Position numbers and translations under genes: made by a program. Positions 33,878 to 59,433 of a DNA stretch of 64,000 nt are shown here, piece by piece (the stretch's first letter is position 1; the number at the start of each line of letters is the position of its first letter). Below the pieces are notes generated by a model. That model was not told where the DNA came from. It did no database searches and saw nothing but the letters and a program-made list of their open reading frames with translations. The stretch is taken from assembly GCA_963717445.1 (NCBI GenBank), contig OY970334.1, positions 3,987,704-4,051,703 on the forward strand. The letters run 5' to 3'. This stretch comes from an uncultured Bacteroidota bacterium. Lineage in GTDB: Bacteria; Bacteroidota; Ignavibacteria; UBA10030; UBA8401.

Positions 33878-34649
33878 TATCCTGATTCTGAAAGGCCCGG
33901 GATATAAAGAAGGATTCATGATGTAAAATCTATTGGACGTGATGAAACAAATGTGGCTTGACCATTCATGGTCAGGCTACGAGAGTCGAAATCAAATGTA
34001 ATGATGCCCTTTAGGGCATTAAAAAGGGGGGAATATGTCTCAAACGTATTACAAGCTTTGGATCCATCTTATTTGGAGCACAAAGGATCGTCAGCCTATC
34101 ATGCAAAAAGAATTCAGGTGGAAGATTTTCAACCATATTAACCAAAAAGCGAAAGAGGAAGGTTATCATCTTGATGCAATTAATGGCGCTGCTGACCACG
34201 TTCATTGTTTGATGTCAATCCGGCCCAAATATTCGATTAGCGAGATTGTTAACAAACTCAAAGGTGAATCGTCTCATTGGATCAACCATGAAGGAATCAT
34301 ACCGACGCGGTTTGTATGGCAGGGAGGGTTTGCGGCCTTTTCGGTAAGTGAATCTCAGCTTGGCAAAGTTCGAGCATATATCCATAATCAGGAAAGGCAT
34401 CATCAAAGAATGCCTTTCGAAGTTGAGGTGAAGAAATTCTTGAAACTATATCATGCAATATCGGAAAGGGCATGAATGCCCTTTCTATCTTGACTGCATC
34501 ACCGTATCCCGACCCTGAAGGGCCCGGATACGAATTAGAATTGCCGGTGTAAAATTTGTCGAAGGAGATAAAACAAATATTGCCTGACCATTCATGGCCA
34601 GGCTACGAGAGTCGAAATCAAATGTAATGATGCCCTTCAGGGCATTAAA
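33878..34649. repeat. Two ~145-bp direct-repeat blocks of REP-like palindromes flanking tnpA
   Basis: 33956-34023 matches 34582-34649 at 65/68 nt; looser similarity extends to 33878 / 34505. Perfect hairpin GAAAGGGCAT-GA-ATGCCCTTTC at 34464-34485. Confidence 0.8.
34035..34475 (+). CDS. tnpA: IS200/IS605-family Y1 (HuH) transposase
   Basis: HLIWSTKDR, DHVH (HuH), KGESS, WQGGFAAFSVS, YIHNQERHH. Confidence 0.9.
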   Translation: MSQTYYKLWIHLIWSTKDRQPIMQKEFRWKIFNHINQKAKEEGYHLDAINGAADHVHCLMSIRPKYSISEIVNKLKGESSHWINHEGIIPTRFVWQGGFAAFSVSESQLGKVRAYIHNQERHHQRMPFEVEVKKFLKLYHAISERA

Positions 34650-39093: not shown

Positions 39094-39289
39094 GAATAGC
39101 GCATCGTTGCAAAACGAATCCAACTCTACCTGTGTTGGAATTAAGCAAAGCATTGTCTGCCTAAATTACATTTTTTGATACACATCAACTTTGCAGGATC
39201 GTCCCGGCTCGAAATGGCCACTATCCAAAAATTTCCTGCAGCGAGGTTAATTTTTCTCTATTTAATCAAAGCTTTATTCTAACCGGGTT

Positions 39290-39330
39290 GGGGTCGTAGC
39301 TCAGTTTGGTTAGAGCGCCTGCCTGTCACG
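39290..39330 (+). repeat. attL: displaced 5' fragment of tRNA-Asp
   Basis: GGGGTCGTAGCTCAGTTTGGTTAGAGCGCCTGCCTGTCACG, identity ending one base past the anticodon loop. Confidence 0.92.
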
Positions 39331-39479: not shown

Positions 39480-40484
39480 ATGGGAAGCCTTATTCGTCAC
39501 AAGTCAGGGGTCTACTACAGTATCACATCCTTAAACGGCAAGAGAGTCTGGCGATCCTTGCGTACAAAAAACCGCATGGAGGCGTACAAGAAATATCTTT
39601 CCGAGATCAAACCTGAAGTCAAGAAACCGAAGTCGCTCTCATTAACCGATGCCCAAGACCAATACTTGGACTATGTGAAAACTAACTTCTCGCCGAAAAC
39701 GGTTAGCATTTATCAAAACGTCTTTAAACTCTTCGATAGCTTTATTGGCGAAATGGATTTGCATGATATATCGACCCGCGATGTAGACATGTACAAGGCC
39801 AGCCGGATAAAAGATGTTTCAGCCAATACAGTCAATCATGACTTGCGAAGCCTGAAAGCATTCTTCAACCGTTTACTTGTTTGGAAGATGATCGAATCAA
39901 ACCCATGTAATGGAATAAAGACGATCAGAGTCGTCGATACGATCAGGCCATATCTTTCCAAAGAGGATCTCACAAAATTGCTCGCGTACACCAAGGGGAC
40001 TCAATTGCATGACATTATTTTGTTGGCTGCAATGACGGGTTTGAGGAGGGGAGAACTGCTTGGTCTGGCATGGGAGGATGTGGATTTGAAGCAAGGGACG
40101 CTTTTAGTCCATAGCACAATCGGCCACACAACGAAAGGGGGAAAGATCAGGCTCATTCCGATGAATTCAGCAGTCAGGGAGTTATTTGAGAGATTGCCGA
40201 AAAACGAGGGACCGATTTTTATAGGGGAGCGGGGAGGATGGAAGAAGGGAGATTTTGTTGGCAGGAGTTTCAAGAAGGCCATACGGGGTTGTGGATTGGA
40301 TCCGAAGCTTCATTTTCACTCACTCCGGCACACCTTTGCAAGCTTGCTTGTAAAAGAGGGAGTATCGCTTTATCATGTGCAGAGGCTCTTAGGGCATTCA
40401 TCCTCACGTGTCACGGAAATCTATGCACATCTGGGGACGACTGAGTTAAGCGGCTCGGTAGAAAAATTGGCAATGGCAGGCTAA
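39480..40484 (+). CDS. Tyrosine recombinase / integrase 1
   Basis: GLRRGE, TKGGK, HSLRH, LGH, EIY catalytic set intact; short N-terminal arm-binding-like region; GGAGG RBS. Confidence 0.93.
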   Translation: MGSLIRHKSGVYYSITSLNGKRVWRSLRTKNRMEAYKKYLSEIKPEVKKPKSLSLTDAQDQYLDYVKTNFSPKTVSIYQNVFKLFDSFIGEMDLHDISTRDVDMYKASRIKDVSANTVNHDLRSLKAFFNRLLVWKMIESNPCNGIKTIRVVDTIRPYLSKEDLTKLLAYTKGTQLHDIILLAAMTGLRRGELLGLAWEDVDLKQGTLLVHSTIGHTTKGGKIRLIPMNSAVRELFERLPKNEGPIFIGERGGWKKGDFVGRSFKKAIRGCGLDPKLHFHSLRHTFASLLVKEGVSLYHVQRLLGHSSSRVTEIYAHLGTTELSGSVEKLAMAG

Positions 40485-40613: not shown

Positions 40614-41690
40614 ATGAAATTCAATTCTGATCAACCGTTTGAATTACCCCTTCTTCCACCGGCCTTAAACTTCAAGCATGAGGAATTTTTTGATATTCTA
40701 ATGAAGACGAGAACCGAGTTAGGCGAGTTAAACGGATATTCGTACACGCTTCCCAATCCAATATTGCTGCTTTCTCCCGCCGTACTCAAGGAGTCTGTTG
40801 CAAGTTCGAATATCGAAAATATCAACACAACGATGGAGGAGGCTTTACAAGCTCAACTCTTTCCAGATGCAGAACAGAAAAAGCCCGATAAAGAAGTGCT
40901 CCGGTACAGAGACGCCATCCAGTGGGGGTTTGAAAACCTCAAGAAAATCCCGATCTCGACTCGGTTGATTCTTGGGATTGAAAAAAAACTGATGCCGGAT
41001 AGAATAGAAGGATACAGGAGGACTCAGAATAAAATTACAAACGTCACGACAGGGAAAGCTCTCTATACTCCACCGACCGCTAACGAACTTCCCAGGCTGT
41101 TAGGCAACTGGGAGAATTTTGTCAATGCTGAAGACGATAACATCGACCCGCTTGTTAAATGTGCAATCGCTCACTACCAATTTGAAGCAATCCACCCATT
41201 TAGCGATGGCAATGGTCGAACGGGGAGAATCCTAATAGTATTGTTTCTAATTCAGCGGAAGCTTCTCTCATTGCCGATTCTCTATGTCAGCGGATACATC
41301 AACAAAAACCGAAACGAGTACTATCGGCTTTTGCGCGAAGTAAGCACAGAAGGAAAATGGCATGAGTGGATTCTCTTTATGCTAAAAGGCTACCACCTGC
41401 AAGCAAAAGGGACAAAGGAAGTCATTCTCCGGATTACAGAAATGCTTGAAGAAATGAAGGTGCTTCTCCGGACAAAGCACAGAAAAATCTATTCATCGGA
41501 CTTAGCAGAAGCGTTGTTTGCATATCCGATTGTTACGCCAATTAACCTTGGCAAAAGGTTAGACGTGAACTACCGAACGGCAAGCCGTTACCTTGTGGAA
41601 CTTGAGAAGGGGAAGGTTCTTAGTGAAAGTTACATTGGGAAGTATCATCTCTATTCAAACAAGCGATTGTTGAAAATGCTCAGATCGTAA
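40614..41690 (+). CDS. Fic-domain protein with inhibitory motif and C-terminal HTH
   Basis: HPFSDGNGRTGR; N-terminal SSNIEN matches (S/T)xxxE(G/N); VNYRTASRYLVEL helix-turn-helix. Confidence 0.92.
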   Translation: MKFNSDQPFELPLLPPALNFKHEEFFDILMKTRTELGELNGYSYTLPNPILLLSPAVLKESVASSNIENINTTMEEALQAQLFPDAEQKKPDKEVLRYRDAIQWGFENLKKIPISTRLILGIEKKLMPDRIEGYRRTQNKITNVTTGKALYTPPTANELPRLLGNWENFVNAEDDNIDPLVKCAIAHYQFEAIHPFSDGNGRTGRILIVLFLIQRKLLSLPILYVSGYINKNRNEYYRLLREVSTEGKWHEWILFMLKGYHLQAKGTKEVILRITEMLEEMKVLLRTKHRKIYSSDLAEALFAYPIVTPINLGKRLDVNYRTASRYLVELEKGKVLSESYIGKYHLYSNKRLLKMLRS

Positions 41691-41793: not shown

Positions 41794-41880
41794 TCTTCTT
41801 CACGGGTAACGGAAATCTATGCTCATCTTGGAACTACGGAATTGAGCGGTTCGGTAGAAAAATTGGCGATGGCAGGATGA
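41794..41880 (+). pseudogene. Second, synonymously recoded copy of the last 28 codons of integrase 1
   Basis: Encodes SSSRVTEIYAHLGTTELSGSVEKLAMAG*, identical to 40398-40484 in protein, with 15 nt differences. Confidence 0.9.
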
Positions 41881-41910: not shown

Positions 41911-42123
41911 ATGAATATCAGGATTAGGATCGAGAAACTTGAATTGCCCAGGCGAAAATTGCGAGAGGAAGAAGCACGGCTGGAAGAAGAAGCAAGAAAA
42001 GCAGGATTTAGTCTCGATGAATATAAAGAAATCAAAAAACAAATTGCCGCATTGTCCCCTGAGGAGCTAATAGAACTGGCGGGGATGACACTCACGAAAG
42101 AACTTGAATCCGAGAACGAGTGA
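41911..42123 (+). CDS. Small hypothetical coiled-coil protein
   Basis: GAGG RBS; N-terminus MNIRIRIEKLE resembles the ORFs at 55124 and 55462. Confidence 0.6.
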   Translation: MNIRIRIEKLELPRRKLREEEARLEEEARKAGFSLDEYKEIKKQIAALSPEELIELAGMTLTKELESENE

Positions 42124-42169
42124 GTGAATATTTACATTTACCAAGATTCCGGAGGACGCCAGTGGCAAA

Positions 42170-42226
42170 TTTTCGTTTGCCTACGCTCTTTCGGTGACCT
42201 TGAGCGACTTGTTAGGGCGCCACGTT
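42170..42226 (-). other. Truncated integron attC site (left half only)
   Basis: Minus strand AACGTGGCGCCCTAAC-AAGTCGCTCAAGG directly after the ATPase stop; no matching GTTRRRY arm seen. Confidence 0.65.
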
Positions 42227-42431
42227 AGAAAGCCTTACCTTGAGTGATATTTAAGCCGTCCCGGTAGATCATCGGAATTTTATAGCTAATGCCGAATTCC
42301 TCAAGAAAGCCTATGTCCACAAGGAGTCTAATCTTGGTTCGTAACTCCTCGTCTTGGGATTGACCTGCCCCCCAAAAACCGATCCACTCTGAAGTTAGAA
42401 AATTTTATATTGTGGATCAACGGAGGCAGCA

Positions 42432-42710
42432 ATGAGCAGAAAAAAGCATACAGCGGAGGAGATCATCAACAAACTGCGAGAAGCAGAGGTCTTGCAGGCT
42501 AAGGGGATGTCGATCGAGGAAGTGATGCGACAGCTTGGAATAAGCGATGCAACGTATTACAAGTGGCGGAGGGAGTATGGAGGCCTACGGGTTGATCAGG
42601 CAAAGCGATTGAAGGAGCTAGAACAGGAGAACAGCCGATTGCGGAGGGTCGTGGCGGATCTGACGATTGATAACTCGATCTTGAAGGAAGCCTCACGGGG
42701 AAACTTTTAA
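42432..42710 (+). CDS. IS3 transposase OrfA
   Basis: HTH region (ISDATYYKWRREYGG) and leucine zipper LKELEQENSRLRRVVADL. Confidence 0.93.
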   Translation: MSRKKHTAEEIINKLREAEVLQAKGMSIEEVMRQLGISDATYYKWRREYGGLRVDQAKRLKELEQENSRLRRVVADLTIDNSILKEASRGNF

Positions 42711-42754
42711 GCCCGGTCAAACGGCGCCGGGCAGCGGAAGAGATCCAGGAAGAA

Positions 42755-43552
42755 ATGATCGTATCAGAGCGACGAGTATGCCGTGTATTGGGACAAGCAC
42801 GATCAACGCAGCGACAAGAGCACAGAGCCAGCGAAGAAGAAGAACGCCTTACACAGCGCATCACAGAGCTGGCATGTCAATATGGGCGTTATGGCTATCG
42901 TCGGGTAACCTTGTTACTGAGGACTGAAGGATGGCGTGTGAACCACAAGCGAGTCGAACGGATATGGCGTCAGGAAGGCCTGAAAGTGCCCAAAAGGCAG
43001 CGCAAGCGACGACGTCTATGGCTCAATGATGGATCCTATATCCGACTGAGACCAGAACACAAGGATCACGTCTGGAGTTATGATTTTGTTGCAGACAGAA
43101 CGAGTAATGGAAAACCGTTAAGGATGCTCAACGTGATCGACGAGTACACCAGAGAATGCCTGGCGATCAGGATTGACCGGAAGCTTACCTCGAACGATGT
43201 TGTGGAGGCTTTAGCAGAATTATTTGTGACGAGGGGAACCCCGGCACATATCCGCTCGGACAATGGACCGGAGTTTATTGCAGAGGCAGTACGAACATGG
43301 CTTCAACGGCTCGGTGTGGATCCACTCTTTATCGAACCGGGAAGTCCTTGGGAGAACGGATACATCGAATCATTCAACGGAAAGTTAAGAGACGAGTTGC
43401 TTAATGGAGAGATCTTTGATACAATTACGGAGGCAAAGGTTGTGACGGAACGATGGAGGAACTACTACAACAAAATCAGACCACACAGTTCGTTAGGCTA
43501 CAAACCACCGGCACCGGAAACATTTTATTCACTTCAGGTTGCCAATGCCTGA
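42755..43552 (+). CDS. IS3 transposase OrfB (DDE)
   Basis: WSYDF, RSDNGPEF, PWENGYIESFNGKLRDE, RPHSSLGY. Confidence 0.95.
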   Translation: MIVSERRVCRVLGQARSTQRQEHRASEEEERLTQRITELACQYGRYGYRRVTLLLRTEGWRVNHKRVERIWRQEGLKVPKRQRKRRRLWLNDGSYIRLRPEHKDHVWSYDFVADRTSNGKPLRMLNVIDEYTRECLAIRIDRKLTSNDVVEALAELFVTRGTPAHIRSDNGPEFIAEAVRTWLQRLGVDPLFIEPGSPWENGYIESFNGKLRDELLNGEIFDTITEAKVVTERWRNYYNKIRPHSSLGYKPPAPETFYSLQVANA

Positions 43553-44969
43553 AAAAATTAACTAACTTAACATTGGCACATAAACTGGGGGCAGGTCACG
43601 ATAGAGTAGCGGAATCATATTCAGATTTTTTGTCGCGGAAGGCTTGAATGAGATATGCGCTCTCGCCTGCTTCCGCAAGAAGAGTGTCTTCGACACGTTC
43701 TTGGCTTAGCGAGGTTAGTCCTCTCTTAATCGAGTCAGCCTGAAAGATTGACTCACCCACTTTCAGGGCGCGTGGATCGCGTTCTTCTTTGCGAATTTGA
43801 ATGTCTCGAGCTTTCTTAAGTAGATCGATTAAATTGCGAGGGGGCTTGACACCGTTACCATCACGAATTCGGGATAAGATCCAGGTCCACGTCAAAGGTT
43901 TTTTTTCTCCAACGTCGATTTGTTCAGGGAAGAAAAATGCGAAGATTTCTTTCTTAGTTCTTCCGCCAAGGTTTGCCTCATTGATGACTTTCGAGTTATT
44001 CATTATTCGACGCATCAAAAGGTCGAAGAGGTCCTCGTCGTTCCAAGTCACGGCTATTCTTCGGGCATTTACGTGGGTGAGGTTTACGAAGCCGCCTTCT
44101 ATTATTTTTCTAAACAAATCGTTCCTCACAAACAGCTTAAGGCGGATGTTCTCGAATTCGAGCAAATCGAGGTATGTTCTGAATAACGCACGAAGAGCTG
44201 GTTTTTCAGTATTTGGGAATCCTTGGAATGCTTCATCAAGTCTATCAATTACGACCCATGCTTTTAGTTCAATCTGAGCAAGAACTTGATTGAGAAGGAG
44301 AAATGCTTCATAATGGTCAACGACAGGATGCGGTGAGTCACGGGGAGGAGCCTCTTCTCCAAACTCTACTTTTGGTACCAGGATAGGCATTCCTTGTGGA
44401 CTAATCGTCATTTTTAATTCGACGGACTTTGGAGTGATTAATCTCTGAACAACATTAACCAATTTGGAGAAAACGGTGTTGGGTGTATCATCAACTGTGC
44501 GTAAATCAATTTTCTTGAGAAGATCGTCCAACTCGATCATTTCGTCAGAGTAAGATCCTTCATAAACCTGTAGAATCCAATTGCCAACAAGTGAGATGAT
44601 GTAAGCTTTCCAGATTGTCAAGTATTGCCCTTCATCAAGAACTTTCGTTTGTGCAAGGCGTTGGAAAACTGGATTGCCCGAAGGATTGAATCCGGTGATT
44701 ATCTCGGTGTCTTCAAGAGAGGCGATTGATCTGTATGTGCTTTGGAGGATTTTATAGAGTGACGTTTTACCGGTTCCTTTGTCGCCGGCTATAATGTCGC
44801 CTTTGTCTCCAATTAAAGAGCGAAAGGTATCGGTTTCCACGAAGTACTCTTGGAGGCCAGTGTCAAATTCAGCGACTGAACTTCCGAGGTTCAGGTCCTT
44901 CAGTATTTCTAATGGTGTCATTTTGATCTCCTCGTTCTAATGCATTATGTGTTGTGACGAAACGTGGCG

Positions 44970-45035
44970 ACCTAACGAACCCGAGCTAAACTGCAGCGAC
45001 GGCTGGTTCCCTTCGCTTTAGAGACTCATTAGCCC
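44970..45035 (-). other. Integron attC site (degenerate, ~66 bp)
   Basis: Minus strand GGGCTAATGAG...TTTAGCTCGGGTTCGTTAGGTC, ending in a perfect GTTRRRY; shares CGACGGCTGG with the attC at 45750. Confidence 0.65.
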
Positions 45036-45039
45036 GTGC

Positions 45040-45717
45040 TCAGATTGTTGCTTTAATAACGCGTTTTCGTTCTTCCTCAAGCGACGCTATCTGGTCCGCG
45101 CTGAATGGCTCGTACATTTTTACATCTTGATGAGTGATTAGGTTCTCCACAAGCCAGTGTCCAGCGGAAGTTATATTTTTGTGTATCTTCAACTCCCATT
45201 TCATTTCTGTTGTAGTGCCACTCGCTGTTGTCTTTCTTGTTTGAAGGCAGGTCATTATGCTGCCAACAGCAGTGCTAAGATAATCATATAGATCGGGCCC
45301 AAGAAATATGGAGGCGAGAAAAAGATTTTGGCGAGTTTCAAGAACTTTGTGCCAAAATCTATTGATTTCGTCCTTTGGAGTCGCCGTTGTCCACGACCAA
45401 CAATCTTGGTATTCGAAATAGAGCCCATAGACGGAATGATAGTGCGCAAGTTTTTTAGCGGCTGATTGTTTGGCAATTTCAAGCCTGAATCTGCTTCTCA
45501 ACTCTTCATCGCGGAAAGCTACATCGAGCTTGCGAGAAAAGGATTCAACTGATTTCTTCGATATTTCGTCCGCAATGCCTTCGACTCTTCTGAGAAAGTA
45601 ACGCAGGATAAGCCAAACGGCAATTCCTAAGGTAGTGAGAAGTAGCCCAATTGATGGCGCAAACATGCGAGCGACTTCTCGGACAGTTTTTAAGTAAAGG
45701 TCAATTTCTGTCGGCAT
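45040..45717 (-). CDS. Cassette-borne hypothetical membrane protein
   Basis: One N-terminal TM helix, GAGGAG RBS, bounded by attC sites. Confidence 0.7.
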   Translation of the reverse strand: MPTEIDLYLKTVREVARMFAPSIGLLLTTLGIAVWLILRYFLRRVEGIADEISKKSVESFSRKLDVAFRDEELRSRFRLEIAKQSAAKKLAHYHSVYGLYFEYQDCWSWTTATPKDEINRFWHKVLETRQNLFLASIFLGPDLYDYLSTAVGSIMTCLQTRKTTASGTTTEMKWELKIHKNITSAGHWLVENLITHQDVKMYEPFSADQIASLEEERKRVIKATI

Positions 45718-45749
45718 CTTGTTATTGACTCCTCAATAGTTGGTCTGCG

Positions 45750-45899
45750 CCCTAACGACCGGAGCTGAGCTGCGGCGGCGAACAGCCGCCAGGTAGTTCG
45801 TTGCGTGGATGTTCCACTCAGTTGTTCCTAAGACCGTCCAACACCGAGCGGCAAAATCGTCGACGGCTGGGTTCCGTCAGCTTGAGCGGCTGTTTAGGG
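45750..45899 (-). other. Integron attC site (~150 bp)
   Basis: Minus strand GCCCTAAACAGCCGCTCAAGCTGACGG...CCGCCGCAGCTCAGCTCCGGTCGTTAGGGC; outer arms GCGCCCTAA/TTAGGGCGC. Confidence 0.85.
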
Positions 45900-45916
45900 C
45901 GCAGCACGAATATGAG

Positions 45917-46615
45917 CTATTTGAATTCATATGGCTCTTCCGTTAGATGCGCTTCATTTTGTTTGCAATAAATGATACCAATATCACTCAGTAAGAATTG
46001 CATAGTCTTTGGATCCATTGCAACAAGTCCGCGTGATGCGAGCTCACGGATAGCGATGATGAACTCTGGATATTCAGGATTGAATGCTCCAATTGTGAAA
46101 GTCCATCGTTTTGAGAAGTCATCAAAGGCTTTTTGGTATTTCCAGAGAGTGGAAAGAATTTTATTTATAATTTTGGACAGATTTGCAGGCAAAGGTGCTA
46201 CTCCAAGCGGTAGAACTACGTCAGGTGCAGGTGCTGGCGTCGGAAAGGTTGCTTGACCTTGTTTAGATCTAAACTTCCACTGTCCAAATGAAATCTCTTC
46301 AAGGTTTTTAATATATTCCGCCAGATGTTGCAGTGCCGCTGACAGGTGCTTCCGAAACATGAGGACTAAAAACACAACAACGAATGGCCAAGCATATGCG
46401 ATGAGAAGGTCTTTGATCGTGATCCAACTATCAGGCAATTGTATTTGTTGGGTTGTGTTCGTACACTCTCGCGGGACTTGAATCGTTATCGTGTTTACAT
46501 TCTGAGGCTGTAAAGAAGTACCCTTGGTTTTAACAATAGCACTGTCCTTTTTAACAGTTCGAAGCACTTTTTTCACGCTCGTGGAAGGACAATTTGTTTG
46601 TTGGTCTGACGTCAT
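45917..46615 (-). CDS. Cassette-borne hypothetical membrane protein
   Basis: Central TM (YAWPFVVVFLVLMF), proline-rich linker, helical C-terminal domain; GAGGAGG RBS. Confidence 0.7.
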   Translation of the reverse strand: MTSDQQTNCPSTSVKKVLRTVKKDSAIVKTKGTSLQPQNVNTITIQVPRECTNTTQQIQLPDSWITIKDLLIAYAWPFVVVFLVLMFRKHLSAALQHLAEYIKNLEEISFGQWKFRSKQGQATFPTPAPAPDVVLPLGVAPLPANLSKIINKILSTLWKYQKAFDDFSKRWTFTIGAFNPEYPEFIIAIRELASRGLVAMDPKTMQFLLSDIGIIYCKQNEAHLTEEPYEFK

Positions 46616-46673
46616 TTGCTGTTCCTCCTCGTGTGAAAATATTCAGAGTTTTTGAGTTAAGTAGATGTGAAAT

Positions 46674-46705
46674 GTGCTGCGCCCTAACTAAGATTAGATT
46701 GTATG
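46674..46705 (-). other. First cassette junction / attI-like site
   Basis: Minus strand AATCTAATCTTA-GTTAGGGCGCAGCAC; no attC hairpin upstream of the GTT. Confidence 0.45.
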
Positions 46706-47024
46706 TAGCAATAACACGTTGCCTTTTAGTATGAATGATAGACTTCTCCCCACAGGATAATGTAAGAATCGTGGGAGTATGCGGTAGGTTTAAGATTGCC
46801 CCCGCTCTATCTCTGGTACAAAACTACACGATTTTGTAAGCAAACGCAACCTTATCCAACATTTGATTGAATTGCATATCCGCGATTTTTCCTCTATCTT
46901 TTCGTAGATTTCTTGAGGCGGAGACCTTATTTGAATCCATTCCCTTCGAATCAATTGACGAAATCCCATAATTCAAGGCATTCAAAAGTAAACAGACCGG
47001 TTCTTTTCTTATCAACATACAATC

Positions 47025-50000
47025 GTGAAAAATAAGAGTGCGATGAAACAGGTTGTCATCGAAAACCCGATTCTAAATTCCCCATTCAAGGAGCCGGCCC
47101 GCCATTTCCGATTCTCGGACGAAGGTATCACTAACGAGATTGTTGAAGGTCGCAGGATTAGTTCCTACTTCATCCCGATAGCCAAACCCCGAAAAAAAGG
47201 CGGGAATCAACTTACCTTCGATACTGAATGGACTGAAGATCGCATTGAAGAGAACAAGTTCATCAATCAAGTGCGAGAGCGGGTTGCACAATGGAGAAAT
47301 CAAGGGTATCCGTCTTCGAGCATTACCAAGACCACAAAGCAATTGCTTGAATATTGGCAACACGAGGATCGTACTCGGAAACTCTTCTTCTGTCAAATTG
47401 AAGCTGTAGAGACTGCCATCTATCTAACCGAGGTAGCCAAAAAATACGGTGATACCTGGATCGACAATAAGATTCATGCCGCCAATCTCGAAGCGAATCC
47501 GTTGCTCTACAGGGTCGCCTTTAAGATGGCTACCGGTTCCGGCAAAACTGTTGTCATGGCCATGATCATTGCATGGCAAGCGCTCAACAAGATTGCGAAC
47601 TCTCAGGACTCGCTTTTTTCCGATTCGTTCTTGATTGTCACACCGGGCATTACAATTCGTGATCGACTGCGCGTGCTGCTACCGAACGATCCGCAAAATT
47701 ACTACAAAGCGATGGACATAGTTCCGCCGGATTTGCTTGAGGAACTTGGTAAAGCTAAAATCATCATTACAAACTTTCATGCGTTTGGGCGGCGAGAAAA
47801 AGTTGCTGCTGGCAAACTTACAAAGAGCATTCTGAGTAAAGGTGACACATCCGTTTTTACTGAGACGCCCGACCAAATGGTCCGACGTGTCTGTCGAGAG
47901 CTTGGCAGCAAAAAAAACATCGTTGTAATCAACGATGAAGCACATCACTGCTACAGACGAAAAGCAGACGGTGAGGAAGAAATGCTTAAAGGTGATGAAC
48001 GCAAGGAAGCCGAGAAGCGTGAAGAGGAAGCGAGGATTTGGATTTCAGGACTTGAGGCTGTCAAAGCGAAACTTGGCCTCAAGGTTGTCTACGATCTTTC
48101 GGCTACTCCGTTCTTTTTGCGTGGATCAGGTTACCCAGAAGGGACGTTGTTCCCCTGGGTGGTATCAGATTTCTCGTTGATCGATGCAATAGAGTGCGGT
48201 ATCGTCAAGGTTCCTCGTGTCCCGGTTTCTGATGATTCGATGGTGGGGGATCAACCAACGTACCGCGATCTTTGGCTTCGCATCCGAGAACATTTGCCCA
48301 AAAAGGGACGTAAAACTCAGGCGCTTGAGGGAGAGCCCAATCTCCCAGTGGAACTCGAAGGTGCACTCCAGAGCCTATATCTCAACTACGAGAAGTACTA
48401 CAGAAAGTGGGAGCAAAACACTGAGGCTCGTTCACGTGGCCTTACCCCTCCGGTCTTCATCGTAGTCTGCAACAACACCAACGTTTCAAAGATGGTGTAC
48501 GACTATATTGCCGGATGGGAAAAAGAACTCCAAGACGAAGAAAGGATTGTAGTTCCTGGTAAACTCTCCCTCTTCAATAACGAAGAAAATGGAAAATGGA
48601 GTGCAAGACCGAACACGATCCTTGTGGACAGCCAGCAATTGGAATCGGGGGAAGCGATGAGTGATGATTTCAAGAAAATTGCTGCTGCCGAGATAGAAGA
48701 GTTCAAAGCAGAGTATCGCCTTCGTTTTCCAGGCCGGGACGTTGACATCCTAACGGACGAAGATCTACTTCGTGAGGTCATGAACACGGTGGGCAAACTT
48801 GGTAAACTTGGTGAGCAGATCAAATGCGTGGTAAGCGTGTCGATGCTAACCGAAGGGTGGGATGCAAATACTGTCACCCACATCCTTGGTGTGCGTGCCT
48901 TCGGTACACAACTGTTATGTGAACAGGTTGTCGGGAGAGGACTGCGCCGCATGAGCTATGCTGCAAATGAAAAGGGACACTTCATGCCCGAATACGCTGA
49001 GGTATATGGCGTACCGTTCTCCTTCATTCCCTCGGCAGGATCGGCTGTCGATCCAAGGCCCGGCCCAATGCCAACAAGAGTTCGTGCGCTTGAAGACCGA
49101 GTGGCCTGCGAGATTACGTTCCCTCGTCTTACTGGTTACCGATATGAACTGCCCGCTGAAAAACTTACGGCAAAGTTTACAGATGCTTCTCGAATGGCAT
49201 TATCAACTGCTGACATCCCAACCAAGACGGAGAATGCACCAATCGTTGGAGAAACGAGTATTCACACTCTCGACAAACTGAAACTGCGACGTGAGCAGGA
49301 AGTGATATTCCTGCTTTCTAAGTTTGTCTTAGAACGCTACTTGCGGGATGCTGATGACAATACAAAGCCGTGGCTATTCCCCCAACTGCTCCGCATCGCG
49401 AGAGATTGGCGCAACCAATGTGTTACGCTAAAAGACAACACCTTTGTTCAGCTGCTATTGCTCATCGAGTTCGCTAACCAAGCTGCTCAAAAAATCTATC
49501 ATGCAATTGTCAACGCAGATGAAGGCGGGAAGCGACTGATGCCGATTCTGCGACCATTCGATACTATCGGTTCCACTCGTTATGTTGACTTCGATACAAC
49601 TCGTTCCACGTATCGAACTCGTGAGGACCGGTGCCATGTGAACGATGTTGTTCTGCACAGTGGGTGGGAGGGGAAGATGGCGCAGACGCTTGAGGACATG
49701 GAAGATGTTTTCTGCTACGTTAAGAACCAGAATCTCGGGTTCACGATTCCATACACATTGGATTCCGAGGAGCACAACTACGTCCCCGACTTCATCGTGA
49801 AAGTAAATGATGGTCATGGGAAAGAAGACCTATTGAACCTTGTTATTGAGGTAACCGGTGAGAAGAAGAAGGACAAACAGGTGAAGGTATCAACTGCAAA
49901 GACACTTTGGATTCCTGCAGTGAATAATCACAGCGGTTTTGGACGATGGGACTTCTTGGAGATTGAAGATCCCTGGGATGCAGCTCATTCAATCATTGAC

Positions 50001-50258
50001 TTCCTGAGACAGAGAGGTGATTCACAAGCTATCATACAGAAAACCTCCGATGTATCGGGGGGTGAGGCATGTATCCGTAATACAAGGATTGCTGTATGGA
50101 CGATCATCAGCCTAATTAAGCTCGGATCTTCAGACGCTGACATAATCAAAGCATATCCTTCCCTGGATATGGTTGATCTTCAATCTGCTCGGTTTTACTT
50201 TGACCGGCACACTGATGAAATTGAGCAATCAATCAAGCAGCACGAGGAGGCAGATTAG
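47025..50258 (+). CDS. res: Type III restriction endonuclease Res (BPTD_3080-like) with C-terminal DUF433 fusion
   Basis: MATGSGKT, NDEAHH, SATP, MLTEGWD, QVVGRGLRR, PDF...IEVTG; then in frame SGGEACIRNTRIAVWTII...IIKAYPSL (DUF433-like). Confidence 0.88.
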   Translation: MKNKSAMKQVVIENPILNSPFKEPARHFRFSDEGITNEIVEGRRISSYFIPIAKPRKKGGNQLTFDTEWTEDRIEENKFINQVRERVAQWRNQGYPSSSITKTTKQLLEYWQHEDRTRKLFFCQIEAVETAIYLTEVAKKYGDTWIDNKIHAANLEANPLLYRVAFKMATGSGKTVVMAMIIAWQALNKIANSQDSLFSDSFLIVTPGITIRDRLRVLLPNDPQNYYKAMDIVPPDLLEELGKAKIIITNFHAFGRREKVAAGKLTKSILSKGDTSVFTETPDQMVRRVCRELGSKKNIVVINDEAHHCYRRKADGEEEMLKGDERKEAEKREEEARIWISGLEAVKAKLGLKVVYDLSATPFFLRGSGYPEGTLFPWVVSDFSLIDAIECGIVKVPRVPVSDDSMVGDQPTYRDLWLRIREHLPKKGRKTQALEGEPNLPVELEGALQSLYLNYEKYYRKWEQNTEARSRGLTPPVFIVVCNNTNVSKMVYDYIAGWEKELQDEERIVVPGKLSLFNNEENGKWSARPNTILVDSQQLESGEAMSDDFKKIAAAEIEEFKAEYRLRFPGRDVDILTDEDLLREVMNTVGKLGKLGEQIKCVVSVSMLTEGWDANTVTHILGVRAFGTQLLCEQVVGRGLRRMSYAANEKGHFMPEYAEVYGVPFSFIPSAGSAVDPRPGPMPTRVRALEDRVACEITFPRLTGYRYELPAEKLTAKFTDASRMALSTADIPTKTENAPIVGETSIHTLDKLKLRREQEVIFLLSKFVLERYLRDADDNTKPWLFPQLLRIARDWRNQCVTLKDNTFVQLLLLIEFANQAAQKIYHAIVNADEGGKRLMPILRPFDTIGSTRYVDFDTTRSTYRTREDRCHVNDVVLHSGWEGKMAQTLEDMEDVFCYVKNQNLGFTIPYTLDSEEHNYVPDFIVKVNDGHGKEDLLNLVIEVTGEKKKDKQVKVSTAKTLWIPAVNNHSGFGRWDFLEIEDPWDAAHSIIDFLRQRGDSQAIIQKTSDVSGGEACIRNTRIAVWTIISLIKLGSSDADIIKAYPSLDMVDLQSARFYFDRHTDEIEQSIKQHEEAD

Positions 50259-50594
50259 TTGGCCAAACTATACACCAATGAGAATTTCCCTCAGCCTTCA
50301 GTTGATGAACTTCGCAGATTAGGATATGACGTACTCACTTCGCATGAGGCTGGAAACTCAAATCAGCGAATCCCGGACCCCGATGTTCTTAATTATGCAA
50401 CTGAAAAAGAAAGAGTACTAATTACCTTCAACCGGAAACACTTCATAGCTTTGCACAAATCAAATGGTGTGCACTCCGGTATCGTAGTATGCACCGTGGA
50501 CAACGATTTCGTGGCGTTGGCGCAAAGGATAGACGTGGAACTTAAACAGAACGGTAACCCTGCTGGTATGCTGATCAAAGTCAACAGGCATTGA
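50259..50594 (+). CDS. DUF5615 PIN-like protein (putative toxin)
   Basis: LYTNENFP...LRRLGYDV...DPDVLNYA...RVLITFNRKHF...HSGI; TTG start right after the res stop, GAGGAGG RBS. Confidence 0.85.
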   Translation: MAKLYTNENFPQPSVDELRRLGYDVLTSHEAGNSNQRIPDPDVLNYATEKERVLITFNRKHFIALHKSNGVHSGIVVCTVDNDFVALAQRIDVELKQNGNPAGMLIKVNRH

Positions 50595-50618
50595 AGGTCT
50601 CGTCAATAGGACAAACCG

Positions 50619-53420
50619 ATGGCAAAACAAAAAAAGAAAAAAAGGGATGCGAAGATCGTCTACTCAACCCCCGTAGAGCACATGAAGCATCGTGACAAAA
50701 GGGTGAACATTCCCACAGAAGAGTTGCGGGACTTCGTAGCTGAAGATGAGAAGGCGCCCCAAAAGATGTTGTACCCCCGTGATCCGTCGCTCGACCCACA
50801 GCTGGTGTGGAAGGGAAAAGACGAGCAGGACTCAAAGCCTTTAGAAGTTCCCATTGTGCCTATCTACATTCAGGAGAAAATTCACCCTCAGGCGATTGTT
50901 GAGGATTTAAGGGCTCAAGCTCGAAAGGAAAAACCAGAAGATCAGGTTGGTTTATTTGATGACTTCAACGGCATTAACTTCGAGGAAATGATCGATTTCT
51001 ACCAACACGAGCAAAATTGGACAAATCGTGCGATTCTCGGTGACTCACTACTTGTTATGACCTCTCTCTCCGAAAAGGAAGGGCTGAAAGGAAAAGTACA
51101 GAGCATTTACTTTGATCCACCGTACGGTATTAAGTTTGGTTCCAACTGGCAGGTGTCCACCAGGCGGAAAGATGTAAAGGACGGTAAAGTGGAGGACACA
51201 ACGCGGCAACCAGAACAAATCAAAGCATTTCGTGACACATGGGAGAACCACATACACTCTTACCTTGCGTATCTTCGGGATAGACTCGTCGTCTGTCGAG
51301 ATTTGTTGACGGAAAGCGGAAGCCTCTTCGTTCAGATCGGAGAGGAAAACGTGCATCTTGTCAGATCAGTTCTTGACGAAGTGTTTGGGGCCGAGAATTT
51401 CTGCAGTCAAATTGCTTTTAGAACTGCAACAAGCCAGCCAACCACTTTGATTTCATGTGTCTACGATTTTGTTCTTTGGTATGGCAAAGTCAAAAGAGAT
51501 GTAAAATACCGCACGCTAAATCGAGAACGCGAGTACTTTGAGAAAATATCGACCTTTGGCTGGATTGAATTGCAGAACGGACAAGAAAGAACTCTCTCTG
51601 CCAAAGAAAAGAGAGGCGAAATCGCATTACCAGAAGGGGGCAAGCTTTTTAAGGACGCAGATATTACACTCGTGCGTAAACCCGACAAACCATACCAACA
51701 TCCGAGATTCAAAGGGAAGGAATTTCCGCTTTCACTTCAGCTTCGATATGTAGATGGCATTGAGAGGCTTGTTGCAGACGATAGAGTCGTTGTTGTAAAT
51801 GATCGCCTTTGCGGAAAACGATATGAGAGTGACATCCCTTACGTGAAGTATAATTCTGTTTGGGACGATACTATGCAAGGGACTTTCGAGCTGACAAAAG
51901 ACCCAAAAAAATATGTAGTGCAAACAGCACCGAAGGTGATACAGCGTTGTCTTCTTATGACCACTGAACCCGGGGACCTTGTGCTTGATCCGACCTGCGG
52001 TAGTGGCACAACCGCATTTGTCGCCGAACAATGGGGACGGCGGTGGATTACCATTGATACGTCGCGGGTAGCTCTCGCGCTGGCTCGCACGCGTCTCATG
52101 GGAGCGAAATTCCCTTATTACCTTCTCTCAGACTCAGCGGATGGAGCCCAAAAAGAGGCAGAAATTACGGGTAAAATCCCCTCAAGCATAGTTCCAAAAA
52201 GAGAAAATGACATCAAAAAAGGGTTCGTGTATCGACGAATCCCTCACATCTCGCTCAAGTCTATTACAAACGACAGACAGATCGACGCTATTTATGCGAA
52301 GCGACAAGGGAATCTTGACGCAATTCGTGCCGAGTTAAACACGTCTCTCAAGCAGTCATGGGAGGACTGGCAAGTACCAGGAGAAGCAGACCAAACATGG
52401 CCACACAAGACTAAGCAATTCCACGCAGAGTGGTGGAAGCTGTACCGTGAACGGCGGAAAGAGATTGATGACCTTATAGCACGTCATTCTGATACCGAGT
52501 TGCTGTACGATCAGCCGTACGAGGACAATAAGCGCATTAGGGTGACCGGTCCGTTTACTGTCGAATCACTTTCCCCTCACCGGGTACTCTCAACCGCAGA
52601 CGATGATCGCGATGGAAAATTCTCTGAACAAGAAGCAATGCAGCAACAAGACTTCGTCTCGATGATCCTTGATAATCTCCGGAAAGCGGGTGTTCAGAAT
52701 ACAGTAAGAAAAGAGCGACTCAAATTTGATCGACTCGATTCGTTTGCGGGGGTCTGGCTCCATGGTTCGGGTGAGTATTCGGAGAATGGCAAGAGGAAGC
52801 GAGTAGTCATATCTATCGGTCCTGAACATGGAACGGTCGGACCACAACTCATCAAAGAAGCAGCTAAGGAGGCGGTATTGGGGGTTGGTTTTGACTTGCT
52901 CATTGTCTGTGGCTTTGCCTTCGATCCCCACGTTTCCGAAGAGGCGAAACGGTACGGCAAGCTCACTGTCCTCATCGCCCGAATGAATCCCGACCTTGCA
53001 ATGGGTGATGAACTGCTCAAGAAGACTGGAGCAGGCAACCTCTTCATGGTGTTCGGTGAGCCGGACATGGAAGTGAAAAAGCAAAAGGATGGTAAGATCA
53101 TCGTCACTATCAAAGGTCTTGATGTCTACGATCCAACCACAGGTCAGATCCGCTCAAGTACTACAGACGACATTGCATGCTGGTTCATCGATACGAACTA
53201 CAACGGCGAGAGCTTCTTCGTGCGTCATGCTTACTTCACTGGTGCGGATGAGCCATACGAAAAACTCAAGCGAGCCCTCCGAGCCGAGATCGACGAGGCC
53301 GCATGGTCTGCCCTCTACTCCACCAAGAGCCGTCCCTTTGATACACCGATCACAGGAAAGATTGCCGTGAAGGTAATAAATCACTTCGGTGATGAGGTGT
53401 TGAAGGTCTATGATTTGTAA
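50619..53420 (+). CDS. mod: Type III DNA methyltransferase Mod (beta-class motif order)
   Basis: YFDPPY (motif IV), a variable central region, then VLDPTCGSGTT (motif I). Confidence 0.9.
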   Translation: MAKQKKKKRDAKIVYSTPVEHMKHRDKRVNIPTEELRDFVAEDEKAPQKMLYPRDPSLDPQLVWKGKDEQDSKPLEVPIVPIYIQEKIHPQAIVEDLRAQARKEKPEDQVGLFDDFNGINFEEMIDFYQHEQNWTNRAILGDSLLVMTSLSEKEGLKGKVQSIYFDPPYGIKFGSNWQVSTRRKDVKDGKVEDTTRQPEQIKAFRDTWENHIHSYLAYLRDRLVVCRDLLTESGSLFVQIGEENVHLVRSVLDEVFGAENFCSQIAFRTATSQPTTLISCVYDFVLWYGKVKRDVKYRTLNREREYFEKISTFGWIELQNGQERTLSAKEKRGEIALPEGGKLFKDADITLVRKPDKPYQHPRFKGKEFPLSLQLRYVDGIERLVADDRVVVVNDRLCGKRYESDIPYVKYNSVWDDTMQGTFELTKDPKKYVVQTAPKVIQRCLLMTTEPGDLVLDPTCGSGTTAFVAEQWGRRWITIDTSRVALALARTRLMGAKFPYYLLSDSADGAQKEAEITGKIPSSIVPKRENDIKKGFVYRRIPHISLKSITNDRQIDAIYAKRQGNLDAIRAELNTSLKQSWEDWQVPGEADQTWPHKTKQFHAEWWKLYRERRKEIDDLIARHSDTELLYDQPYEDNKRIRVTGPFTVESLSPHRVLSTADDDRDGKFSEQEAMQQQDFVSMILDNLRKAGVQNTVRKERLKFDRLDSFAGVWLHGSGEYSENGKRKRVVISIGPEHGTVGPQLIKEAAKEAVLGVGFDLLIVCGFAFDPHVSEEAKRYGKLTVLIARMNPDLAMGDELLKKTGAGNLFMVFGEPDMEVKKQKDGKIIVTIKGLDVYDPTTGQIRSSTTDDIACWFIDTNYNGESFFVRHAYFTGADEPYEKLKRALRAEIDEAAWSALYSTKSRPFDTPITGKIAVKVINHFGDEVLKVYDL

Positions 53421-55465: not shown

Positions 55466-55722
55466 GTCTCAAGATACGAATCAAAGATTTGGAAAAAAAG
55501 AAGAACCCAACGGATCAAGGCCCAAAAAGTCACGTCATCATCTTCACTCCAGGTGTTGATAACGTTGATGCGCTGGTTGCCGAATATCGAAAAAAAGATA
55601 GCGAAAGCTTCCTCTTTGTCATCCCGCGATTCATGCGAAGGACAGAATTATCCGATATGAGTGCTCAAAGCGGAAATAATAACGATTCGAAACAGAATGG
55701 ATCCCAGTTAGGACGACCGTGA
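55462..55722 (+). CDS. Small hypothetical protein
   Basis: N-terminal MSLKIRIKDLE; GTGA overlap with integrase 2. Confidence 0.65.
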   Translation: MSLKIRIKDLEKKKNPTDQGPKSHVIIFTPGVDNVDALVAEYRKKDSESFLFVIPRFMRRTELSDMSAQSGNNNDSKQNGSQLGRP

Positions 55723-56975
55723 ATCCGAGTTTTTTGATACCGGAAGACATATTGTTGGAACCTCGGCTCCTCCAAGTGTACTGTTACTTGTTGAGGATGG
55801 TTTGTAATGAGCCGACGAAAATTCGTAAAGACGGGGTTATGGTGGAATTGAGGAGGCTGGAAGTAGCAATTTTAGGAAGAGACATCTCCCACGATCTTGC
55901 TTTACCGATGAGTGACATCGAACCGCTTTTGAACAAATTGGTCGAGGTAGAGCGAATCATAGTTGACAGAAAGGACGACCTTATGAAAATACGATTCATG
56001 AAATTGCTCTTCCCGCGGTCGAGTGATAGTTCAAACGATGAAAGCCTCCGGGGGGATGTCAGCGACTATTGGCTCGACGATTTCAAAACCGACTACCAGG
56101 AATATGTACAGACGAACCTTTCCCAAAAGTCACTTGATAATGCAAAAAGAGTGATGAAATTATTCTGCAATTTCGTTGGGAAAAAGAAGTTGGGCTACAT
56201 CAGGTCATCAGATGCGGAGGACTTCAAACAAATGCGCAAGAATCAAAAATCTCGCGTTTCAGATGCTACTATCAACATGGATATTAGAACCCTTAAGGCC
56301 GCATTCCAATTCGCAGTGGATGTAGGGAAACTTCATGAAAATCCATTCCGAGCTGTAAAGCAAATTCGATGTCCGCGAAAGCAAATGGCAACTTTCAGTC
56401 ATACAGAGTTTAAGCATTTGACTGGTCATATCAAAGAGCCCTGGCTGCTGGACATAGTCAGATTTGACGTGAATACTGGACTCCGACGAGGAGAAATTGT
56501 AAACCTACGTTGGAAGGATGTTGATCTGGCGAACAAACGCATGTTGATTCAATCATCAGCAGAGTACCAAGTGAAGCATGGAAAGTTTCGCCAAGTCCCT
56601 CTCAATAAGGCAGCATTGGGAATAGTCAAAAGACAAAGTAAGGAAACTGAGTGGGTGTTCTCTGACAGCAATGGGTATAAGTTTGTCGATGAATTTGTTT
56701 CGAAGAAATTCAAAGGGTATGTGAGGCTCTGCAAGCTTTCGGAGGAATTACATTTTCATTCTCTTCGGGCAACGTTTGCAACTTGGGCAATTGCGGCGGG
56801 AATGTCGATCTATGCTGTGAAGGCGATCTTGGGCCATGCGTCAGTGAAGACATCGGAAACCTATGCTTCATACGAAATGGACGCACTTCAGAAGGAAGTC
56901 GAAAAGATTGTTTTGGTCGAAGAAGCAGAGGAATTCAAAGCACCGCTGAAGCTTGTAGGCAAAAAACGATCTTAG
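55719..56975 (+). CDS. Tyrosine recombinase 2 with ~110-aa N-terminal winged-helix-like extension
   Basis: GLRRGE, VKHGK, HSLRA, LGH, ETY intact; core region resembles integrase 1. Confidence 0.9.
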   Translation: MNPSFLIPEDILLEPRLLQVYCYLLRMVCNEPTKIRKDGVMVELRRLEVAILGRDISHDLALPMSDIEPLLNKLVEVERIIVDRKDDLMKIRFMKLLFPRSSDSSNDESLRGDVSDYWLDDFKTDYQEYVQTNLSQKSLDNAKRVMKLFCNFVGKKKLGYIRSSDAEDFKQMRKNQKSRVSDATINMDIRTLKAAFQFAVDVGKLHENPFRAVKQIRCPRKQMATFSHTEFKHLTGHIKEPWLLDIVRFDVNTGLRRGEIVNLRWKDVDLANKRMLIQSSAEYQVKHGKFRQVPLNKAALGIVKRQSKETEWVFSDSNGYKFVDEFVSKKFKGYVRLCKLSEELHFHSLRATFATWAIAAGMSIYAVKAILGHASVKTSETYASYEMDALQKEVEKIVLVEEAEEFKAPLKLVGKKRS

Positions 56976-57064: not shown

Positions 57065-57135
57065 TTTCACGTTGGAGGAGAGAAGAAAAACGCTGAATGG
57101 TGTCGGAAATGCTGAAAAGTCTAAGAAATATGCAC

Positions 57136-57210
57136 GGGGTCGTAGCTCAGTTTGGTTAGAGCGCCTGCCTGTCACGCAGGAAGTCGCGAGTTCGAGTCTC
57201 GTCGGCCCCG
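57136..57210 (+). tRNA. trnD: tRNA-Asp (GTC)
   Basis: Acceptor stem GGGGTCG/CGGCCCC, anticodon stem CCTGC/GCAGG with GTC, T-arm GCGAG-TTCGAGT-CTCGT; CCA not encoded. Confidence 0.97.
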
Positions 57211-57536
57211 CAGAAAATGGAAATACAGTGCGGCTAATGTTGGTCGCCCGCCATCTTTCAGGCGGGTCGGCCCCGCAGAAAATGGAAATACAGTGCGGCT
57301 AATGTTGGTCGCCCGCCATCTTTCAGGCGGGTCGGCCCCGCAGAAAATGGAAATACAGTGCGGCTAATGTTGGTCGCCCGCCATCTTTCAGGCGGGTCGG
57401 CCCCGCACAAAATGGAAATGGAGTGCGGCTATTCTCGCTCGCCCGCCATCTTTCAGGCGGGTCGGCCCCGCACAAAATGGGAATGCCTCGCGGCTATTCT
57501 CGCTTGCCCTCCATCTTTCAAAGGGGTCGGACCCGC
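57201..57536 (+). repeat. 65-bp tandem repeat, five copies plus a partial, each starting with the last 10 nt of tRNA-Asp
   Basis: Units start at 57201, 57266, 57331 (identical), 57396, 57461 (progressively diverged), 57526 (partial). Confidence 0.95.
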
Positions 57537-59412: not shown

Positions 59413-59433
59413 TGCACTTTAACGGATAGTATT

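Follow-up and report, generated by a model that had tools for sequence, protein, structure and literature searches.

An eroding integron cassette array, with a predicted attI site and no integrase gene, in a tRNA-Asp genomic island of an uncultured Bacteroidota bacterium

INTRODUCTION

How do integron gene cassettes come to lie in a chromosome with no integron integrase near them, and can they still move? The question is raised by a 64,000-nt stretch of DNA (the window, in what follows) from an uncultured Bacteroidota bacterium of the Ignavibacteria (GTDB lineage UBA10030, UBA8401; GenBank assembly GCA_963717445.1, contig OY970334.1, positions 3987704-4051703 of the forward strand). Three minus-strand genes are separated there by repeat-bearing spacers (Table 1). 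An initial annotation took them for an integron cassette array without an integron integrase, captured by an integrative element and perhaps still exchanging cassettes. The genes and all the strings it quoted lie where it placed them.

We conclude, with a probability of about 85%, that the locus is a genuine integron gene-cassette array that has kept its attI site and a likely promoter, has lost its integrase gene and carries eroding attC sites. As a remnant it is of an ordinary sort; yet related genomes hold healthy copies of the same integrase-less platform.

A FAMILY OF attC SITES

The repeats are best understood through their relatives. A collection of species-representative genomes was scanned with a 21-nt pattern, AGCTCNGGTNCGTTAGGNCGC, taken from the site's 3′ half. 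The pattern matched 66 loci, mostly in arrays and often several times at spacings of 400-1300 bp, nearly all in metagenome-assembled genomes (MAGs) labelled Bacteroidetes/Bacteroidota, Chitinophagaceae or Ignavibacteriota. Within the arrays the sites are spaced one gene apart. The 66 loci contain 278 full-length units of ~160 nt and give 355 covariance-model hits.

Seventy diverse units were aligned. The TAAC of the 5′ end and the GTTA of the 3′ end are invariant, and the family consensus, R″ GCCTAAC and R′ GTTAGGC, fits the RYYYAAC/GTTRRRY structure on which the initial annotation had relied. The ends are conserved and the centre varies between subfamilies. L″ GCTCAAGCTGACGG pairs with L′ CCGCAGCTTAGC (GCT-C-AAGCTG-A-CGG with CCG-CAGCTT-AGC), leaving the C and the A on the 5′ side unpaired, at columns 19 and 26 of the alignment, in all 70 sites. 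Read on the bottom strand they become G and T, the extrahelical pair typical of attC sites. Bottom-strand folds of two members (L060 and L061) form the L box with both bulges. RNAalifold, applied to the 70 sites, recovered the L box and mispaired the R box; covariation is unusable as support because nearly all pairs are invariant.

Cassettes of the family also carry the expected signature. It was measured on 163 cassettes with a site on either side: at 94-99% of positions −6 to −1, the start of a cassette is complementary to the R″ flank at that cassette's own end, a pattern that results from recombination between G and TT. Controls (the two ends of one site, and shuffled partners) agree at 30-47% at the four variable positions. 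At one genomic locus (L066) the array is divergent from the gene for a 319-aa IntI, which scores 463.9 bits on TIGR02249 (cut-off 265) and is 51% identical to IntI1. With the cassette signature as the decisive test, we identify the repeats as attC sites of a real integron family. As to recombination by IntI, the observations are associations: IntI next to arrays at L066, L107 and L109, and the turnover of first cassettes at attI described below.

A limited search of the literature turned up no description of this very abundant ~160-nt attC family of soil and peat Bacteroidota. Sequence words of the family (window positions 45768-45961, run X1) reach a depth of 654-1078 in the source soil metagenome, against ~6 for the genome.

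SITES AND CASSETTES IN THE WINDOW

The 70 aligned sites served to build a covariance model (R1), whose structure comprised the R box, the L box and one inner stem, and the whole window was searched with filters off. The model is specific to this family and is not that of IntegronFinder. Only attC_1 and attC_2, which lie 780 bp apart, were significant; all other hits in the 64 kb had E values of at least 0.09. The array ends in half a site, attC_3. The region around it (42124-42220) scores 8 bits (E 0.46), with family likeness limited to the 5′ 40 nt, and BLAST gives 82-87% identity to 5′ halves of family sites over 31-41 nt; it is the truncated end of the array. The R′ cores in the window read GTTAGGG, GTTAGGT and GTTAGGG, and the R″ cores CCCTAAC (attC_3), CCCTAAA (attC_1) and GGCTAAT (attC_2). 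Two minus-strand motifs reported as shared between the sites were confirmed, CGCTCAAG at 42199-42206 and 45881-45888 and CAGCCGTCG at 44997-45005 and 45861-45869.

Two of the three cassettes keep the end signature. Cassette 1, with its crossover base, starts GTTAGGGCGCAGCAC (46688-46674, minus) and ends GTGCTGCGCCCTAA (45907-45894), complementary at 14 of 14 positions and independently recovered as an inverted repeat (I21). The corresponding strings of cassette 3, which encodes an ATPase, are GTTAGGTCGCCACGTT (44976-44961) and AACGTGGCGCCCTAAC (42226-42211), complementary at 15 of 16. Both counts agree with those first given. These matches exceed chance. Each start was compared with 216 different R″ flanks from the attC family, across the 12 nt that lie outside the core and with the register of cassette 1 set by hand. 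Each of the two cassettes matches its own end at 11 of 12 positions; only two of the 216 flanks do as well for cassette 1, and none for cassette 3.

All three sites are damaged. The score of attC_1 is under that of nearly all full-length members in other genomes (mostly 140-170 bits). Its invariant R″ end has changed from AAC to AAA, a T-to-C change breaks an L-box pair, the spacer is one base short and the inner stem is damaged. Non-canonical pairs occur in the R and L boxes as well as in the inner stem. The fold preferred by its bottom strand is a different one, in which the L box does not form. In attC_2, 88 model positions are missing, seven pairs are non-canonical and R″ is degenerate.

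An Rfam scan of 38-58 kb at E ≤ 1 found nothing at the attC sites or the attI module, only the tRNA-Asp gene. Two sub-threshold matches, to an L31-Firmicutes leader and a Drosophila scaRNA, were set aside as chance.

THE attI MODULE AND THE MISSING INTEGRASE

Ahead of the first cassette lies a module with the layout GTTGCGTTTG-N14-GTAGTTTTG at its start and, at its end, AATCTAATCTTAG followed across the crossover by TTAGGG. Its match, at ~75% identity, is the attI-intI intergenic region of L066, a complete integron (BLAST E 1.7e-11 to 4e-14). The alignment with the L066 spacer covers window positions 46683-46850, and the homology stops ~20 nt before the L066 intI start codon. A three-way alignment of the window, L066 and a related locus, L065, has conserved blocks up to GCAAC(C/T), and the junction AATCTAATCNNAG, followed by TTAGG, is common to ~20 platforms. 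This homology identifies attI at the head of the array. Judged in the same way, the array is a beheaded integron, more than a cluster of attC sites, because it retains attI and the intI-proximal intergenic region of a complete integron.

The intI gene is absent from just before its start codon onwards. No pseudogene is left and unrelated sequence follows; a restriction-modification operon starts 192 nt beyond the end of the L066 homology, the ATG of its BPTD_3080-family restriction endonuclease being at 47043. A tblastn search of the window with IntI1 found only the generic C-terminal boxes of the two tyrosine recombinases of the surrounding island, both of which score far under the IntI cut-off (Table 1), in keeping with the earlier statement that the window has no integron integrase. 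The 120 best IntI homologues of the L066 protein reach down to ~57-60% identity. None is recorded on a contig with the length of the source contig (4235171 bp), and a cognate IntI there is therefore unlikely; the search for intI elsewhere in the genome, which the initial annotation had proposed, gave nothing among these.

The module also contains a candidate promoter. The −7 consensus of Bacteroidetes sigma-A is TAnnTTTG, at −12 to −5 (PMC9723704). The string TAGTTTTG fits it, and the conserved block TTG-N20-TAGTTTTG faces the cassettes. Among 19 aligned modules, all but one have GTAGTTTTG, the exception (L077) having an extra G after GTAGTTTTG. The block is plausibly the cassette promoter, and any transcription of the array would come from it. 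The sequencing runs that contain window sequence are DNA runs only.

Just downstream of the candidate −7 box, most attI modules have a conserved inverted pair, GAGGGG...ACCTACCG...CCCTC, whose version in the window is GCGGGGG...CTCCCAC (46771-46805, minus). It could be a 5′-leader hairpin or a protein-binding site.

PROPOSED HISTORY

The region is most probably what is left of an integron of chromosomal type from a Bacteroidota lineage. Read along the minus strand, it consists of attI with the promoter-like block, three cassettes and a truncated last attC. On this view the cassettes were originally inserted by an IntI cutting between G and TT, and because of that cut the first bases of a cassette are complementary to its own last bases. 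The intI gene, which in the complete relative lies just beyond attI, is gone. Without their cognate integrase the sites decay, and an insertion sequence (IS) now splits the last gene. The array is now most likely a fixed, operon-like block.

Several points weigh against this account. Cassette 2 shows no own-end complementarity (three of nine positions, hand count). Folded as single strands, neither strand of the window's sites is more stable than shuffled sequence. Such poor folding fits decay, and structure alone would not identify the sites. The extrahelical bases that the initial annotation had proposed to look for are seen in the bottom-strand folds of the relatives L060 and L061 and not in that of attC_1. 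The promoter is predicted from sequence alone. An IntI may still be encoded on another replicon, or on the source contig at less than ~57-60% identity to the protein of L066.

PLATFORMS WITHOUT A NEIGHBOURING INTEGRASE

Other copies of the module were sought by scanning metagenome contigs for the promoter block CAAAACTAC-N13-CAAAYGCAAC. The scan gave 45 loci, ~25 of them with the same module and the same two ends. Among the module loci examined, IntI is beside the module at three only, L107 and L109 from the metagenomes and L066 from the genome scan. Over all modules there are at least six unrelated upstream contexts, including intI, two kinds of terminator hairpin and a restriction-modification operon. 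The copies begin at GTTGC in all but one of those examined (L042 begins GTTTGC), and an upstream terminator hairpin often directly abuts the module.

Some of these platforms appear active. Three loci (L072, L075 and L090) share an identical upstream flank and module through the attI core, and their first cassettes differ; two more (L071 and L102) have an identical upstream flank and module and different sequence directly after the AG/TTAG crossover. We read these sets as population-level turnover of the first cassette at attI platforms without a nearby integrase. R1-family attC sites lie downstream of intI-less platforms (159.7 bits in L090, 121.4 bits in L075), with arrays in L083 and L084. 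One MAG (MFD01476.bin.1.210) holds both the IntI-linked platform of L066 (5328-6287) and, on another contig, an intI-less platform (L042, ~3097-3330), subject to the caveat of MAG binning. Four attC sites of 153-169 bits follow the L042 platform, whose upstream gene ends in an apparent type IX secretion system sorting tail. The window's relative also has a healthy-looking intI-less platform (L014).

The simplest reading of these multi-platform observations is that one integrase serves the platforms in trans. We tentatively extend this, at somewhat short of even odds, to a general picture: the attI and promoter module would be a self-contained landing pad, present in several copies per genome in this Bacteroidota clade and mostly served in trans by a single IntI, with the window as a dead member.

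Might the window's platform itself still be served, by an IntI elsewhere in the genome or on an arriving mobile element, such that at least cassette 1 moves via attI x attC_1? Continuing exchange of this kind had been suggested from the start. In the window's platform the attI core is undamaged and agrees with that of the family (AATCTAATCTTAG, then TTAGG), attC_1 is full length, the intI-less platforms with differing first cassettes head high-scoring arrays, and one MAG has an intI-less platform (L042) as well as an IntI-linked one. The attC family is 100-180 times deeper than the genome in the source soil metagenome, and IntI donors therefore probably co-occur. Set against this are the lesions of attC_1, whose 103.8 bits compare with a typical 140-170, the wreckage of attC_2 and attC_3, the want of a close IntI on the source contig and the unrepaired IS in cassette 3. 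Nor did contigs of four soil runs contain joints of excised or deleted cassettes over 41.5-47.3 kb, although contigs drop rare variants; their only joints are inside the IS and the attC repeats and come from other repeat copies. For this copy we hold present exchange to be unlikely.

A bolder extension is that the module and its array may move as a unit, by recombination at the G/TT at the module's promoter end. Applied to the window, it would mean that the attI module and array were inserted, here as elsewhere, by IntI at the promoter-proximal G/TT (G, then TTGCATTTG), and that intI was never lost in situ. The common GTTGC start beneath at least six unrelated upstream sequences, the terminators that often abut the module and the known ability of IntI to insert cassettes outside att sites (bioRxiv 10.1101/2022.09.11.507474) speak for it. 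However, the boundary coincides with the candidate −33 TTG element, and functional constraint alone could explain where conservation starts. The distal end expected of such a unit, a complete attC followed by TT and target sequence, is not shown by the window, whose distal end is truncated, and recombination at the promoter-end G/TT has never been demonstrated. As an account of this locus we consider it improbable.

That these are not integron sites at all, being instead tRNA-derived attachment-site remnants of serial tRNA-Asp integration or generic palindromes such as repetitive extragenic palindromic (REP) sequences or miniature inverted-repeat transposable elements (MITEs), can be rejected: the 3′ half of the site (AGCTCAG...GTTAGGGCGC) does resemble the D-arm of the adjacent tRNA-Asp (AGCTCAGTTTGGTTAGAGCGC), R1 has weak hits on tRNA pieces (10.3 bits at 39272-39318, 5.3 bits at 57130-57177) and the sites lie inside a tRNA-integrated island, but the ~160-nt unit occurs hundreds of times elsewhere in one-gene-spaced arrays, beside true IntI, the own-end complementarity of 163 cassettes is specific to G/TT crossover chemistry, the sites are oriented opposite to the tRNA, and no other tRNA-Asp fragment was found inside the island.

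Loss of intI from a chromosomal integron, followed by decay of its sites, is the history that we prefer for the locus.

CASSETTE GENES AND THE INSERTION SEQUENCE

The genes of cassettes 1 and 2 (g1 and g2) have no family match in Pfam, NCBIfam and PADLOC scans. Each product has one strongly hydrophobic segment, and both are predicted to be small membrane-anchored proteins. The g2 gene is an ORFan: among 5.8 billion proteins only g2 itself was found. Three homologues of g1 were found, one of them (P0002) 75% identical. Cassette flanks, expected under the initial annotation around homologous genes elsewhere, are present at a 66%-identical g1 homologue on a 956-bp Logan contig (L068): its flanks GTTACGCGCCATAGGCAC and GTGCCTACGGCGCATAAC are complementary at 16 of 18 positions (hand count). 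The ~140-nt hairpin site after that gene, with R″ GCGCATAAC and R′ GTTAGGT, belongs to a different attC family, so that the gene has passed from one type of integron to another. A weak g1 homologue (L069) has no attC hit. A tblastn search with the three cassette proteins against all array loci retrieved found no shared cassettes.

The third cassette encodes a Sll1717-family P-loop ATPase, which scores 152.6 bits on NCBIfam NF047389 and 76.6 bits on PDC-M28C, a defence candidate of PADLOC. Its gene is a candidate for phage defence. Chromosomal integrons are reported to store defence genes (bioRxiv 10.1101/2024.07.02.601686), and the ATPase fits such content.

The ATPase gene is interrupted by an IS3-family element with two overlapping open reading frames (ORFs), helix-turn-helix and then DDE rve. 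It has terminal inverted repeats TGACCTGCCCCC, with TG...CA ends, and is flanked by an intact 3-bp target-site duplication, GAT (42358-42360 and 43600-43602). Removal of the IS and one copy of the duplication restores a 484-aa frame that ends just before R″. The IS is multi-copy in the source soil metagenome, with a depth of 24-64 against ~6 for its flanks (4-10 times). A copy 81% identical to it lies inside the array region of another MAG (L046). One short contig, X3, which comes from another run, spans 42197-42361 and extends 24 nt past the IS boundary; it may represent an IS-free allele.

COMPARISON WITH KNOWN SYSTEMS

A cluster of attC sites without an integron integrase is termed a CALIN (Cury et al. 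2016, PMC4889954). In the same survey 38% of CALINs had a neighbouring IS, and IS elements together with integrase loss were proposed as a source of CALINs (PMC4889954). The CALIN label of the initial annotation holds by definition: the locus has two significant attC sites and a half site, no intI within 4 kb or anywhere in the window, and an IS inside the array. It is incomplete, however, in that attI and the intI-proximal spacer, which the definition ignores, are retained, with no intI pseudogene. The IS, moreover, interrupts a cassette gene rather than parting the array from intI.

Xanthomonas usually retains intI as a pseudogene, located downstream of ilvD. The window differs in having not even a pseudogene, and its locus lies in a tRNA-Asp island of a Bacteroidota genome. 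The Xanthomonas platform is reported to have lost integrase activity in some lineages, with stable arrays as the result (bioRxiv 10.1101/2025.06.18.660453). To that extent the two are alike: both are chromosomal platforms with lost integrase activity, and L065 is a similarly dead copy at the same chromosomal flank.

The superintegron of Vibrio cholerae is a sedentary chromosomal integron with homogeneous long attC sites, the Vibrio cholerae repeats (VCRs). The parent family of the window's array resembles it in its highly similar ~160-nt attC sites, its many, mostly ORFan cassettes and its divergent intI. It differs in phylum and in attC sequence, which is unrelated, and its MAGs appear to hold several attI platforms per genome, most of them without an adjacent intI.

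Insertion outside att sites, at attG (Loot et al., bioRxiv 10.1101/2022.09.11.507474), is one way for cassettes to end up apart from intI. The window differs here too, its first cassette abutting a bona fide attI homologue and not a random genomic site.

Taken alone, the locus follows a textbook integron fate: with the integrase gone, the attC sites degenerate and the cassettes become fixed as ordinary genes. The locus is of value as an entry to a very abundant ~160-nt attC family, its attI site and its candidate cassette promoter, and to a module most of whose copies are without a neighbouring integrase, yet appear active. If one integrase does serve several attI platforms, many CALINs would be functioning components of one dispersed integron, not debris, and the way in which genomes and metagenomes are assessed for integron content and cassette flux would change.

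THE SURROUNDING ISLAND

The region is recognized as a tRNA-integrated genomic island by the part-tRNA repeats at its two ends and the tyrosine recombinase genes adjacent to them. As first annotated, the array lies inside it, between the two 41-nt tRNA-Asp direct repeats. At 41-46%, the G+C content of 39-47 kb is lower than the 47-51% found over most of the flanks.

Table 1. Coordinates of the array, its sites and the other features of the island in the 64-kb window
Feature	Position	Strand	Remarks
attI + promoter-like module	46688..46850	-	163 nt; starts GTTGCGTTTG, ends AATCTAATCTTAG; crossover after G46688
Candidate −33 element	46850-46846	-	TTG within GTTGC; 20 nt upstream of TAGTTTTG
Candidate Bacteroidota sigma-A −7 box (putative Pc)	46819..46826	-	TAGTTTTG; points into cassettes
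Cassette 1	45756..46687	-	starts TTAGGGCGCAGCAC, runs to G of next GTTAGGG; gene g1 46615-45917, 232 aa
attC_1	45745..45902	-	full length; R″ CCCTAAA 45899-45893, R′ GTTAGGG 45756-45750; R1 103.8 bits, E 6.5e-30
Cassette 2	44976..45755	-	gene g2 45717-45040, 225 aa
attC_2	44965..45037	-	internal deletion; R″ GGCTAAT 45034-45028, R′ GTTAGGT 44976-44970; R1 31.6 bits, E 3.5e-8
Cassette 3	42185..44975	-	Sll1717-family P-loop ATPase gene 44921-42224, 484 aa without IS
IS3-family insertion sequence	42361..43599	+	1239 bp; inside ATPase gene; HTH_Tnp_1 and rve/rve_3 ORFs
attC_3	42185..42226	-	5′ half only; R″ CCCTAAC 42217-42211, then AAGTC GCTCAAGG; no L′ or R′ after
Left direct repeat	39290..39330	+	orphan first 41 nt of tRNA-Asp; 100% identical to 57136-57176 (family D4)
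Tyrosine recombinase by left repeat	39480..40484	+	Pfam Phage_integrase; TIGR02249 78.9 bits (cut-off 265), not IntI
SoFic-type Fic protein	40614-41690		PADLOC 361.8 bits; between intact recombinase gene and its remnant
Remnant of second recombinase gene (D2)	41794-41876		83 nt; 84% identical to 3′ end of intact island recombinase gene
Charged ORF	41911-42123		70 aa; after recombinase remnant
Type III-like restriction-modification module	47025-53420		endonuclease, then 111-aa ORF, then 933-aa MTase_III (943.8 bits)
Tyrosine recombinase by tRNA-Asp	55719..56975	+	TIGR02249 51.8 bits (cut-off 265), not IntI
tRNA-Asp(GTC)	57136..57211	+	ARAGORN; Rfam tRNA model 68.8 bits; first 41 nt = right direct repeat

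A related MAG contig (L065) bears on how the array came to be in the island. It is 80% identical to window positions 57880-60199 (2.3 kb) and has, at the same flank, a degenerate 3′ fragment of tRNA-Asp, a region that resembles attI but has no intI, and attC hits that are weak (12-26 bits). The three cassette genes of the window are all missing from it, and so is the whole restriction-modification and recombinase block. An integrase-less remnant at this locus is therefore not peculiar to the window, and the remnant may be older than part of the island. Capture of a block of cassettes by the island, as the initial annotation had proposed, is therefore unproven.

The position of the Fic gene, between the intact recombinase gene and its remnant, suggests insertion or recombination within a duplicated recombinase gene. 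The endonuclease of the restriction-modification module matches the BPTD_3080 family with 1207.5 bits and has a C-terminal DUF433 domain. Two ORFs without assigned function also lie between the island repeats.

Directly after tRNA-Asp, at 57201-57525, there are five to six tandem 65-nt units, each of which begins with the last 11 nt of the tRNA, GTCGGCCCCGC, and contains a GC-rich hairpin, CGCCCGCC...GGCGGG. They could be repeated duplications of an attachment site or of a terminator. Outside the island, at 34035-34475, lies a gene for an IS200/IS605-type Y1 transposase (Pfam Y1_Tnp, 105 bits).

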